5,131 nucleotides of DNA. It comes from a virus. The position numbers and the translations under genes were made by a program. The stretch is from IMG/VR virus record IMGVR_UViG_3300045988_031434. One strand, written 5' to 3'. Positions 1 to 5,131 of the stretch are shown here, one piece after another. The notes below the pieces were generated by a model that was not told the DNA's origin, searched no databases, and saw nothing but the letters and a program-made list of their open reading frames with translations. Within the stretch, counting starts at the first letter, position 1, and each line of letters starts with the position of its first letter.

Positions 1-99
1 ATTTTTTTTTGAGCCAAAATATCACCTTCTTCGAAGTGTAAACCTAATAATTAACCTAAAGCAAATTATTATTAGGTTTTAGATTATTTTTGCGTCACC
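1..99. repeat. Terminal direct repeat, copy 1, identical to 5033..5131. It carries the duplicated 5' end of VP1 (codons 1-6 at 1..17) and part of the VP3/VP1 intergenic region
   Basis: Base-by-base comparison by eye found all 99 nt identical. The repeat runs to the last base of the window, so it reflects circular closure rather than a biological repeat. Confidence 0.95.
40..79. repeat. AT-rich perfect 12-bp inverted repeat (AAACCTAATAAT / ATTATTAGGTTT) with a 16-nt loop. The 7-mer AACCTAA occurs twice direct and once inverted
   Basis: 40..51 pairs perfectly with 68..79 and the loop is 52..67. AACCTAA sits at 41..47 and 53..59, and its complement TTAGGTT at 72..78. On the minus strand the element ends about 20 nt upstream of the VP1 start. 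Confidence 0.8.
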
Positions 100-140
100 T
101 ACGCCAGTTACATCAAGTAAGTAACTGGCTTCGGTGACGC
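92..140. promoter_or_regulatory. Compound hairpin in the main intergenic region: candidate replication origin, primosome site or mRNA 3' stabiliser
   Basis: The outer stem 92..99 (GCGTCACC) pairs with 133..140 (GGTGACGC), 8 bp perfect. A 3x3 internal loop separates it from the inner stem 103..111 (GCCAGTTAC) / 121..129 (GTAACTGGC), 9 bp perfect. The 9-nt loop is 112..120. The hairpin starts immediately after the VP3 stop codon (141..143). Confidence 0.75.
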
Positions 141-623
141 CTATTTTTGTGTTTCTTCATTATTTTGTTCTAAAGTGTTACTTTTTTCTTGCATTTGTTC
201 ACTACTTACGGACTGTTGTGGTTCGTCAAAGGTAGATTTACTACCATACAGACCTTGTTGTCGGAGATATTCGAGCGTTGCAGGATCATTCAAATGGTCG
301 ATGAAATTCATAGGATCATGACCAAATTTTGCTCGAACGTAAGCGGGTAAACTGTAGAATTCTTCACGAACTCCGGACACAAGCTCAAGAGCTGTGCTGT
401 AGTCGCCGGGAAGCGTTGCATCTCCAAACTGCAGGTAAGCGTATTGCGAACTATCACCGAGGTCAAGAGTCATAATACCTTTCTGACCGTCTGCATACTT
501 ATTTACGATGTAATTAATATCAGTTTCTTCTTTCTCGTCCTGAACCGTAAGAGAGGGCATGGTAAACTCAATGCCGCAATGATCATGATCTTCTACAGGA
601 TCATAAGCTGTCTTAAATTTCAT
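141..623 (-). CDS. VP3: Internal scaffolding protein VP3 (160 aa)
   Basis: Gokushovirus VP3 hallmarks are present: EFTMPSLTVQD..EETDINYIVNKY, then F.SLPA.VR.KF..DP..FI..L.DP. ATG at 623 is preceded by AAGGAGGTGA (637..628) with a 4-nt spacer. The GTG at 641 used by the ORF track lies upstream of that SD and is unlikely. Stop is TAG at 141..143. Confidence 0.88.
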   Translation of the reverse strand: MKFKTAYDPVEDHDHCGIEFTMPSLTVQDEKEETDINYIVNKYADGQKGIMTLDLGDSSQYAYLQFGDATLPGDYSTALELVSGVREEFYSLPAYVRAKFGHDPMNFIDHLNDPATLEYLRQQGLYGSKSTFDEPQQSVSSEQMQEKSNTLEQNNEETQK

Positions 624-642
624 AGTTTCACCTCCTTTCACA

Positions 643-670: not shown

Positions 671-671
671 C

Positions 672-706
672 AAAAAAAGGGCGATCTCAATGAGATCGTC
701 CTTTTT
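672..706 (-). terminator. Rho-independent terminator downstream of the VP5-like gene (bidirectional architecture)
   Basis: The minus strand reads AAAAAGGACGATCTC-ATT-GAGATCGCCC followed by TTTTTTT. The core stem is 7 bp perfect (682..688 / 692..698) plus two G:C pairs (679-680/700-701) across one mismatch. An A5 tract lies 5' of the hairpin and a T7 tract 3' of it. Confidence 0.75.
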
Positions 707-723
707 CTGATACGCTCTTTATT

Positions 724-752
724 AGATTATCATTTAGTAGAATCACTGTCAA
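724..752 (-). promoter_or_regulatory. Weak candidate sigma70 promoter: TTGACA-N17-TAATCT with an extended -10 TG
   Basis: The -35 TTGACA is at 752..747. The 17-nt spacer contains TG at 732..731, and the -10 TAATCT is at 729..724, matching only 3/6 of TATAAT. It lies at the 3' end of the VP5-like gene and fires straight into the terminator at 706..672. Confidence 0.3.
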
Positions 753-1020
753 TAGTCTGCACATACTCTATGGCGCGACCAACAATGACAGGAATGTGGG
801 ACTCGTCACAATTCTCAATGTAATAGCGACCGTCGCTGTCACCGAGATTACCAACATAATAAAGAGAAAAGTCTTCAGGATACTTTTTAATAAGCATTTT
901 ATCATCGTTAACTATACCCTCAAAAGCTCGCAGAGCGAGCATATCGTTATGATAAACCTGCGGAGGACTGAACTGTTCAGCCTTGGAGTCATAAATGGAA
1001 TAAAGTCTCAGCGGAACCAT
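730..1020 (-). CDS. VP5: VP5-like non-structural protein (96 aa from ATG 1020; 102 aa if TTG 1038 is used)
   Basis: The pattern LYSIYDSKAEQFSPP....N...ALRAFEGIVND......KYPEDFSLYYVGNLGDSDG resembles the gokushovirus ORF5/VP5 family (hydrophobic-YD-K ... A.R.F ... PED[FY].L..[IV]G). It sits in the conserved position between VP4 and VP3. The start is uncertain: ATG 1020 abuts AAGGAG with no spacer, and TTG 1038 has only a weak AGGT 6 nt upstream. Confidence 0.65.
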   Translation of the reverse strand: MVPLRLYSIYDSKAEQFSPPQVYHNDMLALRAFEGIVNDDKMLIKKYPEDFSLYYVGNLGDSDGRYYIENCDESHIPVIVGRAIEYVQTIDSDSTK

Positions 1021-1228
1021 CTCCTTTTCTAAATGCAATTAAATACCTACGAATCATAAGATAAAGCATAGCTGATATAACAAAATAGTCATTATCAAGC
1101 CGAATAACCCTAGAACCATCAGGCTTAAGACGGTAAGCGGCATATTTACTACCACGAAAAGAGTAGTCAAAAGAAATATTACGATAACGACAGAAATTTT
1201 TAACAGCTTCAAATTCACTAATAAGCAT
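989..1228 (-). CDS. Hypothetical small protein (79-80 aa), an orphan accessory ORF between VP4 and VP5
   Basis: This is the only open frame filling the roughly 220-nt gap between the VP4 stop and the VP5 start. A near-consensus promoter and an AGGTGAT SD precede it. The start is ambiguous: GTG 1231 and ATG 1228 lie inside the SD, and ATT 1222 lies 4 nt after it. The 3' end overlaps the VP5-like start by 32-50 nt. I recognise no motif. Confidence 0.45.
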   Translation of the reverse strand: MLISEFEAVKNFCRYRNISFDYSFRGSKYAAYRLKPDGSRVIRLDNDYFVISAMLYLMIRRYLIAFRKGDGSAETLFHL

Positions 1229-1246
1229 CACCTCATTTCTGACTAA

Positions 1247-1275
1247 ATAGTAACACAGTCATAATACTTTGTCAA
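1247..1275 (-). promoter_or_regulatory. Candidate sigma70 promoter: TTGACA-N17-(TGt)TACTAT
   Basis: The -35 TTGACA (1275..1270) is a perfect consensus. The spacer is exactly 17 nt with an extended -10 TG at 1255..1254, and the -10 TACTAT is at 1252..1247. It overlaps the VP4 stop codon (1259..1261). The predicted TSS near 1240 gives a leader of about 10 nt before the AGGTGAT SD of the 80-aa ORF. Confidence 0.5.
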
Positions 1276-2170
1276 GCTTTCTGCCGAGAAAAAACTTATA
1301 CTTACCTTCCTGAACACGACAGCGGTCAACCAAACGCTCAAAAGTATTATTCTCCAAGTTATGAAGCATCTTCTCAATACGATTATAACGAATATATTCC
1401 ATCCAGTGAGGATGCGTTTCGTCAAATTTTTTATCATAATAACGAGGAGGACGCATCTTTTTGCCGTTGATAACAACATAATCATTGGCATAGCATTCTT
1501 CACCATGGTCTTCGAGCCATTTAGCACCTATGCCGGGACGATTGGAAGCAACCATGAATTCAGGAATACGACCTTTATAGTGAGAAGGAGCATCTTTACC
1601 TGTCTGCTTTTTAACTATATAGCGAGCGACATAGGCAGCAGAATCAAAGCTAAACTCACCAATAAGATGCAAACCGTATTTCCATACTTTGGCAAAACGA
1701 GAAGAAGTATAAGTATTATAACCATCTGTCCGGAAACGAAAAATTTTGTCATCAAAATCAATATTAAACAAAATGTAATGATAATGGGGACGACCATGAA
1801 GTTCACCATATTCACCACAGCCAAGAAAGCGAATACCACTGCCATACTCACGACGAAGATTTTTCATGAAAGTCTGATGAAATTTCTTGCTTAAGCTTTT
1901 ATCACGTGGCAAATGATAATCGTCGAAAGTGCAAGTGACGAAATAAGCAGAAGACGAAGAACGGGCTTCGTGAACAGCACGGACAGCCCACTGTCTACTA
2001 TTTTCGAGACGACAACCAATGCATTGTTTACAAGAACAACGAATGAAGCGGCTATCGCAAGCAAGCTCAGGGTGAGAGGCAAGGCTACCGTAAAAACTAT
2101 AATGTTGTTTTCCACTTTTAGTAATCGCTCCTTCAACCGAGCACATAAGAATAGGATTATAACAAACCAT
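1259..2170 (-). CDS. VP4: Replication initiation protein VP4 (HUH rolling-circle endonuclease, 303 aa)
   Basis: Motifs present are a Cys cluster CKQCIGCRLENSRQWAVR, motif I FVTCTFDD, HUH motif II RPHYHYILFN (HYH at 1778..1786), and motif III with two tyrosines AAYVARYIVKK (Y codons at 1631..1633 and 1619..1621). ATG at 2170 is preceded by AGGTGAT (2181..2175) and a 4-nt spacer. The GTG at 2179 used by the ORF track lies inside that SD. Confidence 0.92.
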   Translation of the reverse strand: MVCYNPILMCSVEGAITKSGKQHYSFYGSLASHPELACDSRFIRCSCKQCIGCRLENSRQWAVRAVHEARSSSSAYFVTCTFDDYHLPRDKSLSKKFHQTFMKNLRREYGSGIRFLGCGEYGELHGRPHYHYILFNIDFDDKIFRFRTDGYNTYTSSRFAKVWKYGLHLIGEFSFDSAAYVARYIVKKQTGKDAPSHYKGRIPEFMVASNRPGIGAKWLEDHGEECYANDYVVINGKKMRPPRYYDKKFDETHPHWMEYIRYNRIEKMLHNLENNTFERLVDRCRVQEGKYKFFLGRKLDKVL

Positions 2171-2187
2171 ATTAATCACCTGTACCG

Positions 2188-2216
2188 ATTGTATCAGGAT
2201 TAAATCAGAATGTCAA
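2188..2216 (-). promoter_or_regulatory. Candidate sigma70 promoter for VP4: TTGACA-N17-TACAAT
   Basis: The -35 TTGACA (2216..2211) is a perfect consensus and contains the VP8-like stop codon TGA (2215..2213). The spacer is exactly 17 nt. The -10 TACAAT (2193..2188) matches TATAAT at 5/6. The predicted TSS near 2181 coincides with the start of the VP4 SD. Confidence 0.55.
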
Positions 2217-2323
2217 ATCCTAAAACCACCTCGTCCTACTCTCTTAAAATTTCTACGCCTAGATCTGGAGGTACGCCGAAAAAGACGACGAGAACCTCGT
2301 TTAGATAAACGACGACGTCTCAT
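2213..2323 (-). CDS. VP8: Arginine-rich DNA-binding peptide, VP8 / phiX174 J-like (36 aa): MRRRRLSKRGSRRLFRRTSRSRRRNFKRVGRGGFRI
   Basis: I translated this by hand; it is too short for the supplied ORF track. It has 16 Arg and 2 Lys in 36 residues and no acidic residue. GGAGG at 2336..2332 lies 7 nt upstream of the ATG (2323..2321). The ATG overlaps the upstream stop as ATGA. Its position between VP2 and VP4 matches gokushovirus ORF8/VP8. Confidence 0.8.
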   Translation of the reverse strand: MRRRRLSKRGSRRLFRRTSRSRRRNFKRVGRGGFRI

Positions 2324-2559
2324 TTAGCATCCCTCCAAGAACCGAAAAAACGGCTAGTTTTTTTAGAATCATTCTTATTAGCAACTGGCTCAACAAGTTG
2401 CGCAACATCGGCTTGAAAATCCGAGGCAACCTTTTTAGCAGTAACAGTATTCGAAGAAGCTTTACCTTTCAGAGCTTCGATCAGATCTACAACTTCCTGA
2501 ATAAAAGGGACAACAACAGAAACGATAAAAGTAAGAATCATAGTAGTTTTATTAGACAT
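2320..2559 (-). CDS. Small protein with one N-terminal hydrophobic helix (79 aa); function unknown, candidate membrane or lysis protein
   Basis: ATG at 2559 is preceded by GGAAGGAG (2575..2568) and an 8-nt spacer. This initiation region is nearly identical to that of VP2. The N-terminus is MSNKTT, then MILTFIVSVVVPFI, then a polar, charged tail. The gene starts 4 nt after the VP2 stop, and its own stop overlaps the VP8-like start (ATGA). The TTG at 2577 used by the ORF track lies just upstream of the SD and abuts it. Confidence 0.65.
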   Translation of the reverse strand: MSNKTTMILTFIVSVVVPFIQEVVDLIEALKGKASSNTVTAKKVASDFQADVAQLVEPVANKNDSKKTSRFFGSWRDAK

Positions 2560-2563
2560 AAAA

Positions 2564-3292
2564 TTAACTCCTTCCAAAATAACGACCTCCGAAGAAGCCT
2601 ATAACATTTTTGATAGCAGAACCAACGCCAGTAGCAACAGATCTGGGAGCGCCTGTAAGACTTTCAAGATTCTTATAAAAATCACGTTCCATACCTGCCA
2701 TTTCAGTTTGAATATTATCAAAAGCAGCAGAAGAATTAGCCTTGTTAGCAGAAGCAATATTATTCAAAATACCAGAGCTAATATAAGAACCCTGAAGCCG
2801 AAGGTTTTCAAGCTCCAAATTCATCCTTTCAAGTTCGTAACCAAGGCGCTTTTCATAAGTCTGCTCACGAAGATTCAAATCATTTGCAAGAATACCATTC
2901 TGAAGAACTATACCATGGGTGCTCTGACGCACAGAATCGGCATCTGCGACGTTTTTTTCAATTTGAGATACTGAAAGATTCTCGGCATTCTTAGCCTGCC
3001 TTTCAGCGGCGCTAGCGGCTCTAGCAGAGTTCATGGTAGAACCTATATCACTCATACCTACAGAAGCAGCCGAAGCACCAGATATAGAACCGCCTATACC
3101 ATTAGTAGCGGCAAGAATAGGATTAAGGCCAGCCTTGCGCATATCTTCTACAGCCCATTGATAACGATGTTTATAGTTTTCAACGTTCCAAGCGTTAGCC
3201 TGTGCGGCATTAGCAGAATTGTAATGATTCTGAACTGCAGATCCTAAAACAGAACCAGCAACACTGCCTAAAGTATTAGAAAGCCATGACAT
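2564..3292 (-). CDS. VP2: Minor capsid / DNA pilot protein VP2 (242 aa)
   Basis: It has a Gly/Ser/Ala-rich N-terminus and then the conserved core YKHRYQWAVEDMRKAGLNPILAA, typical of Microviridae VP2/H-type pilot proteins. A long heptad-like helical segment follows (LNLREQTYEKRLGYELERMNLELENLRLQ). AAGGAG (3306..3301) follows the VP1 stop directly, with an 8-nt spacer to the ATG at 3292. Confidence 0.88.
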   Translation of the reverse strand: MSWLSNTLGSVAGSVLGSAVQNHYNSANAAQANAWNVENYKHRYQWAVEDMRKAGLNPILAATNGIGGSISGASAASVGMSDIGSTMNSARAASAAERQAKNAENLSVSQIEKNVADADSVRQSTHGIVLQNGILANDLNLREQTYEKRLGYELERMNLELENLRLQGSYISSGILNNIASANKANSSAAFDNIQTEMAGMERDFYKNLESLTGAPRSVATGVGSAIKNVIGFFGGRYFGRS

Positions 3293-3306: not shown

Positions 3307-5049
3307 CTAGAAATGATCAACAAGGCCGGGAGTACCAAACATAGGCATAGGACGCACAGTAGTGTAACGGAAGCCTATGTCAAGCAAGAATTCAGGCTCA
3401 CTGGGAACAGCGATAATACGCTCAATAGGTGGATTTTCGACTATGAATTCTTCATTAAGAGTTGGAGCATTTTTAAAGAACTGGGACAAATGCCACATAT
3501 CCAAAGAACCATTAACTACAGAACTACGAAACTTACCTGTAATTTGCGAAGGTTTATAGCGATATTCGGCATAACGTTCCTGATAGCCAAAAACAGTAGT
3601 ATCAGCTTCAGAACCCTGAGCATAAATCTCACGAAGCTCAATAGCCTGTTCGCCAAGATGAGCGAATGTAGTCCAATAAAAATCATAAACAGTAGAGCGA
3701 AGCCACATCTTGTTAATACCCTGCTGATAAGTAAGATCAGCACGAGCACATACAAAACCAAAAATATAGCCATGCTCAACAAAAGACTTATTAAAACCAT
3801 GGAACTTAGCGGCAGTAACACCATAAGCAGAGAGATTGCCTTGAGGAGAGATATCGTCGGTTGCAGAAGTTTGAGCTATTGGATTGACATTTATCATTTT
3901 GGTAAAGGAGCCGAGAAATTCAGGACGCTGAAGACGGGCGTCCGGAGAAACTACACCAAAGAAAGAACGGAGCACTTCTGTATACCGAGTACCACCACGA
4001 GCAAGACGTTCATAGAACTTCTGCATCTGGAAAGCTGTGCGAAGACTGTTGATTGTAAAAATGCTTGAAGAGTCCAAATCAACATAAGAATCATTGCCAA
4101 GGTAAGCAGAACCAACTTGAGCAGAAATAGTTACCGGACCATCAGTATTACCAGCAAAACCGCCTACAGTACTAAATTCAGAAGCATAACGGGAGAACGT
4201 AACAACTCCATTACCTGATGCCATTCTTTTACCGCCTGAAGAAGAGGCGCTACCGCCATAAGCAGAAACAGCGGCGAGCTGATTAGCGTTACTATGGAGA
4301 AGATAGCCATTATCAGGTGTAGGGTCAACTATAGAAGCAGTACCAGCAAGACCTATAGAAACACCTGGTCCCTTCTGTGTCCAGGGCAGAGCAGAAGTGA
4401 AGTAATCATGGCGCTTACCGCGAGGGGGGCAAGGATATCCGGGAAAAATGTTAGATCCAGACTTGAACAACCAAGAAGGTTGATCAGAAACCCGGGCAGA
4501 GTTTAAAACTTCGTTAGTATCGCCTTTCTGAATCTTGACGGATTTTTGGAGGTTTTCATCTCTAAACCATTCATTCCAAATAAGGTAAACACCACGAAAC
4601 GGAAGAGCACTAATACCAGATATATTACCAGACGTATTTACGGGCAAACCGAAATAGTCCCAAAGAGAGCCTATGTAGTCATTTTTAGAGTTACCAGTAG
4701 CAGAAACGGTAGGGATAACATAATCAGTGCTATCATCAGGGTCTTCCTGCTCAAAGCAGAAGTTCTGCCAATGTTCCCAAACGAGGCGGTTTGGTACAAA
4801 AAAGAAAAACCAGTCCAGATAAATATTATCCATGATAGGCTTAATAGGAGTAGCCAAACGAGCGAAGTAATTAACAGACATACGAGCAGTATCGCCAGGC
4901 AAAACCTCATCAACAAATACAGGTATAAGCTTGCCTGAATCAAAAGTTGTCTTATAAACATGGGAACGGTCAAACTTAGTCCTTTTCATGTACATTGCAG
5001 GAGCATCGCTGAAGCGATGTCCTCGAACTCTTATTTTTTTTTGAGCCAA
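3307..5049 (-). CDS. VP1: Major capsid protein VP1 (F-like, 580 aa) with an apparent TTG start
   Basis: Conserved gokushovirus VP1 blocks include HRFSDAP...FDRSH.YKTTFDSGKLIPVFVDEVLPGDT, RHDYFTSALPWTQKGP, TINSLRTAFQMQKFYERLARGGTRYTEVLRSFFGV.SPDARLQRPEFLG and GYQERYAEYRYKPS. The frame opens after an in-frame TAA at 5083..5085, and no ATG or GTG occurs before TTG 5049. AGGTGAT (5059..5053) lies 3 nt upstream of that TTG. Confidence 0.93.
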   Translation of the reverse strand: MAQKKIRVRGHRFSDAPAMYMKRTKFDRSHVYKTTFDSGKLIPVFVDEVLPGDTARMSVNYFARLATPIKPIMDNIYLDWFFFFVPNRLVWEHWQNFCFEQEDPDDSTDYVIPTVSATGNSKNDYIGSLWDYFGLPVNTSGNISGISALPFRGVYLIWNEWFRDENLQKSVKIQKGDTNEVLNSARVSDQPSWLFKSGSNIFPGYPCPPRGKRHDYFTSALPWTQKGPGVSIGLAGTASIVDPTPDNGYLLHSNANQLAAVSAYGGSASSSGGKRMASGNGVVTFSRYASEFSTVGGFAGNTDGPVTISAQVGSAYLGNDSYVDLDSSSIFTINSLRTAFQMQKFYERLARGGTRYTEVLRSFFGVVSPDARLQRPEFLGSFTKMINVNPIAQTSATDDISPQGNLSAYGVTAAKFHGFNKSFVEHGYIFGFVCARADLTYQQGINKMWLRSTVYDFYWTTFAHLGEQAIELREIYAQGSEADTTVFGYQERYAEYRYKPSQITGKFRSSVVNGSLDMWHLSQFFKNAPTLNEEFIVENPPIERIIAVPSEPEFLLDIGFRYTTVRPMPMFGTPGLVDHF

Positions 5050-5131
5050 AATATCACCTTCTTCGAAGTGTAAACCTAATAATTAACCTAAAGCAAATTA
5101 TTATTAGGTTTTAGATTATTTTTGCGTCACC
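5033..5131. repeat. Terminal direct repeat, copy 2, identical to 1..99
   Basis: Same comparison as copy 1. The window ends inside the 5' arm (GCGTCACC) of the hairpin that is seen complete at 92..140. Confidence 0.95.

Follow-up and report, generated by a model that had tools for sequence, protein, structure and literature searches.

Here, we analyzed a stretch of gut gokushovirus DNA of 5131 bases (IMG/VR record IMGVR_UViG_3300045988_031434; hereafter, the window), which represents a 5032-nt circle plus a 99-nt terminal redundancy and carries every gene on its minus strand. We found that a compound hairpin at positions 140..92 of this strand is probably the viral-strand (plus) origin of rolling-circle replication, with a predicted nick by the phage initiator protein VP4 between G114 and A113. 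The candidate origin has two conserved parts, namely a hairpin loop that would present TTACTTG/AT as single-stranded DNA (ssDNA; an unbracketed slash in a sequence marks the cut) and a TGAC(G/A)C box starting 16 nt 3' of the G. A first-pass annotation of the window, made from its letters alone, had proposed this hairpin as a VP4 nick site and origin, and our comparison with relatives, in which the loop is kept while the stems vary, supports that proposal. A CTTG loop followed by a second box at a set distance was found across hundreds of related small phages.

Read on the minus strand, 140..92 is GCGTCACC-GAA-GCCAGTTAC-TTACTTGAT-GTAACTGGC-GTA-GGTGACGC. The hairpin has an outer stem of 8 bp, separated by a 3x3 internal loop from an inner stem of 9 bp, which is capped by a loop of 9 nt; its sequence and all of its structural parts are as the first-pass annotation had described. 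The outer stem pairs GCGTCACC (133..140) with GGTGACGC (92..99), the internal loop opposes GAA (130..132) to GTA (100..102), and the inner stem pairs GCCAGTTAC (121..129) with GTAACTGGC (103..111), all on the minus strand. Between the arms of the inner stem lies the loop TTACTTGAT (112..120), where alignment with phiX174 places the predicted nick. The leading GTAA of the inner 3' arm is part of a conserved CTTGATGTAA consensus, and the adjoining GTA acts as the spacer between hairpin and box and is invariant in relatives, some of which have TAC in place of GAA, so that these bases pair with GTA and close the internal loop. The outer 3' arm carries the TGACAC(C)-type box, a candidate VP4 binding element that reads TGACGC in the window (97..92), and is followed by the A-rich tract AAAAATAATCTA (80..91).

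Folding calculations strongly favored this structure, both as DNA (−19.7 kcal/mol, z = −8.7, with 0 of 200 shuffles reaching an equal value) and as RNA (−32.6 kcal/mol, z = −8.9). The hairpin, earlier described as the most elaborate structure of the genome, is the longest inverted repeat of the window and the most stable 60-nt segment of the genome (−19.7 kcal/mol versus a mean of −4.0, standard deviation 2.5), the next being a terminator at 709..671 (−16.1). The hairpin starts one base past the VP3 stop (TAG at 143..141; open reading frame (ORF) 141..641), again in agreement with the initial description. ACTTGAT occurs a single time in the genome, within the hairpin loop, and its chance expectation had been correctly estimated at ~0.3 per strand.

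As close relatives, we used 80 IMG/VR genomes with VP3 93–97% identical to that of the window. Among them, the stretch 170..81 varied at 1–2% of positions per 30 nt, while most 30-nt blocks of the flanking genes varied at ~4–10%. The loop TTACTTGAT was essentially invariant, with TTACTCGAT as one variant. The inner helix was paired in 99.4% of cells and had two compensatory pairs in the clade, 129/103 (G:C to A:T) and 128/104 (C:G to A:T). No compensatory change was observed in the outer stem within this close clade; its sole departure found in more than one variant was T137G in the 5' arm (5 of 20 variants), and its 3' arm, the box, was nearly invariant, one variant reading GGTGACAC. We considered the outer stem as an independently selected helix and dropped this idea because no covariation was found within the clade. 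Given that its 3' arm is the conserved TGACGC box, the outer stem is, on the basis of this sequence comparison, a clade-specific pairing of an upstream complement (GCGTCACC) with that box. Therefore, the 8 bp noted in the first-pass annotation are present, while their status as a helix of their own did not stand.

A hairpin located after VP3 was also kept in genomes of the same gene order with ~67–72% DNA identity over part of the genome. In MG945525, the outer stem differed and the loop was CTTACTTGAC; MG883714 had the loop CTCACTTGAC; and KX513874 (L081) had a wholly different inner stem (GTGTCTATTA) with the loop TCGCTTCTTGACG. The well-known phages Chp2, SpV4, and phiMH2K, hosted by Chlamydia, Spiroplasma, and Bdellovibrio, respectively, each had ACTTG on the coding strand in the loop of the longest perfect hairpin of the genome (Chp2, stem of 14 bp and loop TCTACTTGAT; SpV4, 10 bp and ATTACTTGTTATA; phiMH2K, 11 bp and GGACCCTACTTGTTGTAA). 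In divergent gokushoviruses, including these three, stems were unrelated in sequence and the coding-strand loop (A/C)CTTG(A/T)T was retained. This is the outcome that had been named initially as the test of the nick-site proposal, and it was observed in close and divergent gokushoviruses alike.

The same loop emerged from a census in which no motif was used. We retrieved 80 diverse gokushovirus contigs through VP1 alone (49–62% identity to phiMH2K VP1), listed every perfect hairpin of at least 7 bp, and retained 78 genomes for statistics. The top coding-strand loop pentamers in the 80 genomes were TTGAT (44), CTTGA (43), and ACTTG (39), followed by TACTT (32), TGATG (27), GATGT (27), and CTTGT (25), with the top unrelated pentamer at ~18. 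The loop of the longest hairpin contained CTTG in 41 of the 78 genomes and CAAG, representing the opposite orientation, in 2, and any CTTG-loop hairpin was present in 65 of 78 real genomes versus 9 of 78 shuffled ones. An alignment of 56 elements yielded an RNAalifold helix of 8 pairs, all 8 with compensatory changes. Anchored on CTTG, the loop consensus of 74 genomes was yT(A/C)CTTG(A/T)TGTAA. Counting from the C of CTTG as position 0, conservation reached 100% for T+7, 91% for T+5, 89% for G+6, and 86% for A+9, and most positions in the stretch +27 to +49 had A as their most frequent base. A covariance model (R1), built without the window or its close relatives, matched the window once, at 88–141 on the minus strand (39.3 bits, E = 6e-9). 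With its 9-bp inner stem, the window falls within the family as defined by a hairpin of at least 7 bp with (A/C)CTTG(A/T)T in the coding-strand loop, and its element is intergenic and single copy, with the VP3 stop (141) on one side and the VP1 start (5049) on the other.

The second conserved part was the box. In 66 of the 74 genomes, a TGACAC(C) or TGACAG box started 16 nt (48 genomes) or 17 nt (18 genomes) past the G of CTTG, and this spacing held whatever the stem sequence; the window box, one base off the consensus, starts 16 nt past G114. A box followed 69 of 1136 CTTG sites, which corresponds to about one per genome. Scanning IMG/VR for CTTGATGTAA-N10-11-TGACAC returned at least 120 matches, and nearly all of the matches listed were contigs of 4–6 kb with stems of 6–17 bp, whereas a control scan with the wrong spacing (N7-9) gave 49 matches in the whole of IMG/VR, mostly on large contigs, with no stem longer than 5 bp. 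A scan of GTDB genomes with the composite pattern gave 121 matches, of which 104 were attributable to chance, having neither a hairpin nor microvirus genes, and 12 belonged to microvirus contigs or prophages. Pairing of the box with a downstream complement, which forms a second hairpin, was found in 19 of 65 other genomes, compared to 1 of 65 with shuffled flanks. Examples among L089-L167 include L098, L101, L127, and L135, where the box is the 5' arm of this second hairpin; upstream pairing was seen instead in the window and in L081, L082, and L083. These patterns suggest that the box tends to be held in duplex on ssDNA, by either upstream or downstream pairing.

Outside gokushoviruses, we observed intergenic CTTG-loop hairpins in two 6.3-kb microviruses, L332 (PP511800; 4110-4151) and L331 (PQ006728; 3677-3716), the former with a 14-bp stem, the loop caacCTTGTTGTta, and TGACAC 17 nt past CTTG. 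In the distant microviruses L333 and L334, no CTTG-loop hairpin was found. The hairpin-box module may predate Gokushovirinae.

The enzyme presumed to act on this element is VP4 (1259..2179, minus strand), which was assigned to Pfam PF23343 and PHROG 942. Its sequence contains the motifs that define two-tyrosine HUH endonucleases: motif 1 (uuTuxx) as YFVTCTF (residues 79–85), the HUH motif as HYHYILF (132–138), and YxxxY followed by lysines as YVARYIVKK (183–191, with Tyr183 and Tyr187). The identification of VP4 as an HUH/two-tyrosine protein in the first-pass annotation is thus borne out by motifs and profile families. The phiX174 gene A protein (gpA) carries GRLHFHAVHF and FYVAKYVNKK, and the cognate enzymes are alike in having two tyrosines four residues apart, in YVARY in VP4 and in YVAKY in gpA. 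Because BLASTP between VP4 and gpA aligned the HUH block alone (E = 0.015), their homology rests on motifs and profile families.

The substrate of gpA provides a further parallel. Positions 4299-4328 of phiX174 (J02482) read CAACTTGATATTAATAACACTATAGACCAC, with rep_origin annotated at 4306, confirming ACTTGAT as the core of the gene A origin recognition sequence. The phiX174 ori(+), a 30-nt sequence (CAACTTG/ATATTAATAACACTATAGACCAC) cut by the gene A protein, has the core CTTG/AT on the viral strand in common with the window, and each genome has one origin copy. The decamers TTACTTGATG and CAACTTGATA match at 7 of 10 positions, with an identical ACTTGAT core. In register with the phiX174 nick, identities with the gokushovirus consensus were CTTG, A+4, T+5, T+7, A+9, G+21, A+22, C+23, and C+26. 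The GAC at +21..+23, a short match, falls within the right-hand binding region of phiX174 (…TAGACCAC, ~20 nt past the nick). Cleavage of phiX174 DNA occurs between G4305 and A4306 via Tyr343/347, and synonymous changes were detrimental from codons Q107 to D115, corresponding to 4299-4325 and ending on the in-register GAC (2026 preprint). The two sites differ in architecture: the origin of phiX174 lies inside gene A and has an AT-rich spacer and no hairpin, while the window element is intergenic, places the nick sequence in a hairpin loop, and has the 3' stem arm instead of the spacer.

Position and orientation were also informative. All 73 elements surveyed were intergenic; the element occurred about once per genome and was most often located upstream of VP8/VP4; flanking genes were VP3 then VP4 (32 genomes), VP3 then VP8 (16), VP5 then VP8 (12), and VP3 then VP1 (9), the last being the type of the window. 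Out of 183 composite motifs, 177 were on the VP1 strand and 6 on the other strand. In these six genomes, L107 (739-792, −), L113 (4113-4168, −), L233, L251, L297, and L318, genes were all on one strand and the whole element was inverted with its sequence intact; R1 scored two of the inverted elements (L107 and L113) at ~50 bits. GenBank MZ089785 (L335; 2608-2660, −) represented a seventh inverted case.

These inversions bear on whether the hairpin instead functions in RNA, as a transcription terminator or 3'-end stabilizer of the VP3 message. Its start right past the VP3 stop, its high stability as RNA (−32.6 kcal/mol), and the TTTTT that follows the homologous hairpin of KX513874 on the coding strand are consistent with such a role. 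However, inversion of the whole element relative to all genes in seven genomes would destroy an RNA-level signal, and the sequence was nevertheless intact. In the window, AAAAATAATC rather than a U-tract follows the hairpin; A-tracts flank it on the coding strand and T-tracts are confined to the gene-less plus strand, which upholds the previous assessment that it is not a canonical coding-strand terminator. Across the 74 genomes, the downstream flank was A-rich. A terminator scan, performed together with a promoter scan in which site counts equaled those in shuffles, passed over the hairpin, yet a canonical terminator occurs at 709..671. Furthermore, terminators need neither a conserved loop nor a box at a set spacing. 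We consider an RNA-level role very improbable, while a secondary stabilizing effect in the window genome is possible.

Another function in protein–DNA recognition, as a packaging signal, a VP4/VP5 operator, or a XerCD/dif-type attachment site, has to be weighed given that some gokushoviruses are temperate and the element adjoins an integration junction in one prophage. In Phascolarctobacterium faecium DSM 14760 (L388, NZ_QLTS01000001), positions 2793-7341 hold a gokushovirus prophage with the gene order of the window (VP1-VP2-VP4-VP5-VP3-element), flanked on either side by a direct dif-like repeat, ATATATATTATGTAAA (2793-2808 and 7326-7341). Its origin-like element occupies 7195-7248, ~80 nt from the right junction. 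However, it is intact and internal (63 bits with R1) in a prophage bounded by the separate dif-like repeats, which indicates that attP is another sequence and that the hairpin is not the attachment site. Variable stems would also be ill-suited to a site that must match the host chromosome. Packaging of phiX174 is tied to gpA at its origin and is not known to use a separate signal; given this coupling, a role in packaging would belong to the origin model instead of competing with it. Altogether, a protein–DNA site of another kind seems improbable, and terminator, mRNA stabilizer, and attP are disfavored as primary functions. Similar prophages were observed in contigs of Sutterella, Clostridia, and Peptostreptococcaceae (L337, L413, and L392). 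No prophage close to the window was found, identities being 63–70% over parts of VP1.

The main rival to a viral-strand origin is a complementary-strand (minus) origin, in which the hairpin on incoming viral ssDNA would be recognized by host primase, PriA, or RNA polymerase to prime the second strand, as at the n' site of phiX174, the hairpins of G4 oric, and ssoA of plasmids. Even coliphages differ from one another in their known minus origins, since these depend on host machinery. By contrast, the loop and box described here were kept in phages of Chlamydia, Spiroplasma, Bdellovibrio, Phascolarctobacterium, and Sutterella, and over ~27 nt the conserved sequence is in register with the site cleaved by the enzyme family to which the phage initiator belongs. 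The window loop has no ssoA CS-6 (TAGCGT), and no Rfam family reached threshold in a permissive search of both strands, the one chance match being a Drosophila scaRNA at 26.5 bits versus a gathering score of 88. On the other hand, the hairpin is highly stable in ssDNA form, its strand is presumably the one packaged, and the phiX174 minus origin is an intergenic hairpin overlapping a terminator (2026 preprint). Other tiny microviruses, the reekeekee- and roodoodoo-microviruses, also have hairpins in intergenic regions, with identical loops and with compensatory changes in the stems, and the authors who described these hairpins tentatively assigned them to minus-strand priming (PMC9865509). Overall, a minus origin fits poorly with our comparison and is unlikely, with a dual role also possible. 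Thus, both alternatives named in the first-pass annotation, a priming site and an mRNA stabilizer, were weakened by the comparison, and each retains some likelihood.

Several observations weigh against a viral-strand origin. The box is a variant (TGACGC) in the window and degenerate in Chp2 (TGATAG), SpV4 (TGACGA), and phiMH2K (TCACAG), and no element was detected in ~15% of the sampled genomes with the criteria used. The likeness to phiX174 has its limits, since the phiX174 origin is hairpin-less and within a gene, the in-register GAC match amounts to 3–4 bases, and R1 gave no match to phiX174. The inverted elements would require packaging of the antisense strand, for which Microviridae offer no reported precedent, and a complementary-strand origin would also appear as a conserved hairpin on the packaged strand. 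Finally, no cleavage, adduct, or 5'-end mapping experiments were found in the literature for any gokushovirus, and the support gathered here is comparative. Likewise, no published description of a gokushovirus replication origin was found in full-text literature searches, whose coverage did not extend to the classic Chp2, SpV4, and phiMH2K papers, where an earlier mention is possible.

Origins with comparable features are known in other replicons. Double-strand origins of pC194/pUB110-family plasmids, which use an HUH-type Rep, contain TCTTGATAATAA, and the pC194 origin contains TCTTGATAA; pC194-type plasmids share CTTGATA at their origin and are nicked at CTTG/ATA. These replicons are plasmids and have no TGACAC box. 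Their Rep_1 proteins have one tyrosine and a glutamate (PMC5703833). The stem-loop origins found in CRESS-DNA viruses (gemini-, circo-, and nanoviruses) and in the plasmids pMV158 and pT181 have the same architecture as the candidate, namely a nick site in an extrudable hairpin loop and an adjoining Rep-binding element, and their cleavage depends on supercoiling (PMC5703833). They differ in their unrelated loop sequence, which in CRESS-DNA viruses is the nonanucleotide TAATATT/AC, in their Rep families, and in having iterons, as opposed to the single box here.

A viral-strand origin at this hairpin would operate as follows. Host enzymes would turn the incoming ssDNA into a supercoiled replicative form, as established for phiX174 and assumed here. 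Supercoiling would then extrude the hairpin, rendering the loop single-stranded, and VP4 would dock on stem and box, anchored by the TGAC(G/A)C sequence of the latter. In the clade of the window, the upstream complement (140..133) would pair with the box to give the compound hairpin, keeping the box duplex even on ssDNA. By homology with phiX174 gpA, a tyrosine of YVARY (Tyr183 or Tyr187) would attack the G114-A113 bond and become linked to the 5' phosphate of A113, while the host replisome would use the 3'-OH of G114 as the primer of the leading strand. Once a round is complete, the hairpin would re-form in the displaced strand, where the second tyrosine would cut and reseal, presumably releasing the circular viral strand for packaging.

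The remainder of the window has the gene content of a gokushovirus and is ~91% identical to gokushoviruses found in the gut of humans, pigs, and dogs (e.g., MG945759 and KX513872). On the minus strand, VP1 (5049..3307, its start corresponding to circle position 17) is followed by VP2 (3292..2564), a small ORF (2577..2320), an Arg-rich 36-codon ORF (2323..2213; MRRRRLSKRGSRRLFRRTSRSRRRNFKRVGRGGFRI) that was unlisted and resembles the J/VP8 DNA-condensing proteins, VP4, another ORF (1231..989), VP5 (1038..730), and the VP3 scaffold gene (141..641; Pfam Chlamy_scaf), whose stop abuts the hairpin. Bases 5033-5131 repeat bases 1-99, so that the box and outer-stem 3' arm (92..99) recur at 5124..5131. 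A near-consensus sigma-70 promoter (TTGACA-17-TACAAT with an upstream TG) lies ahead of VP4 at 2216..2188 (−), and the stretch spanning the Arg-rich ORF and this promoter was among the most conserved in the 80 close relatives. The canonical intrinsic terminator in the VP5/VP3 gap (709..671, −) consists of GGACGATCTCA-T-TGAGATCGCCC, preceded by an A-tract and followed by TTTTTTT; VP3 is located downstream of it, before the candidate origin hairpin.

Two further hairpins were observed on the minus strand. The first, AT-rich and with 12-bp perfect arms (AAACCTAATAAT and ATTATTAGGTTT), occupies positions 40-91, with the candidate origin on one side and the ribosome-binding site of VP1 on the other; its conservation in relatives was moderate, and it could be a VP1 promoter site, an unwinding region, or a minus-strand origin. 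The second, CATCGC-TTCA-GCGATG at 5004-5019, is within the first VP1 codons, and the 30-nt block that holds it (5022..4993) had 1.7% variation in the 80 relatives, as low as that of the origin region. Among the contigs, L164 (IMGVR_UViG_3300045988_001800) had at ~5040-5104 a 58-bp inverted repeat of the Illumina/Nextera adapter (…CTGTCTCTTATACACATCT…ATCTCGTATGCCGTCTTCTGCTTG), representing contamination of a public contig.

Gokushoviruses are among the commonest ssDNA phages of gut and environmental viromes. A sequence-defined origin candidate, with a predicted nick and a bipartite consensus found across the subfamily, makes the start of their replication directly testable. The candidate links the classical origin of phiX174 to the hairpin-presented form seen in CRESS-DNA viruses and rolling-circle plasmids, provides a landmark for orienting microvirus genomes and setting their start, and flags the rare genomes whose packaged strand may be reversed. 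We tentatively put forward, as a possibility that we regard as rather doubtful, that the CTTG-hairpin and TGACAC-box are the ancestral Microviridae origin module that sets which strand is nicked and packaged, with the hairpin-less origin of phiX174 being derived. If so, the ~3% of gokushoviruses with an inverted module would package the antisense strand, representing the first negative-sense microviruses, and the origin would be readable directly from any microvirus contig, for orienting and circularizing it.

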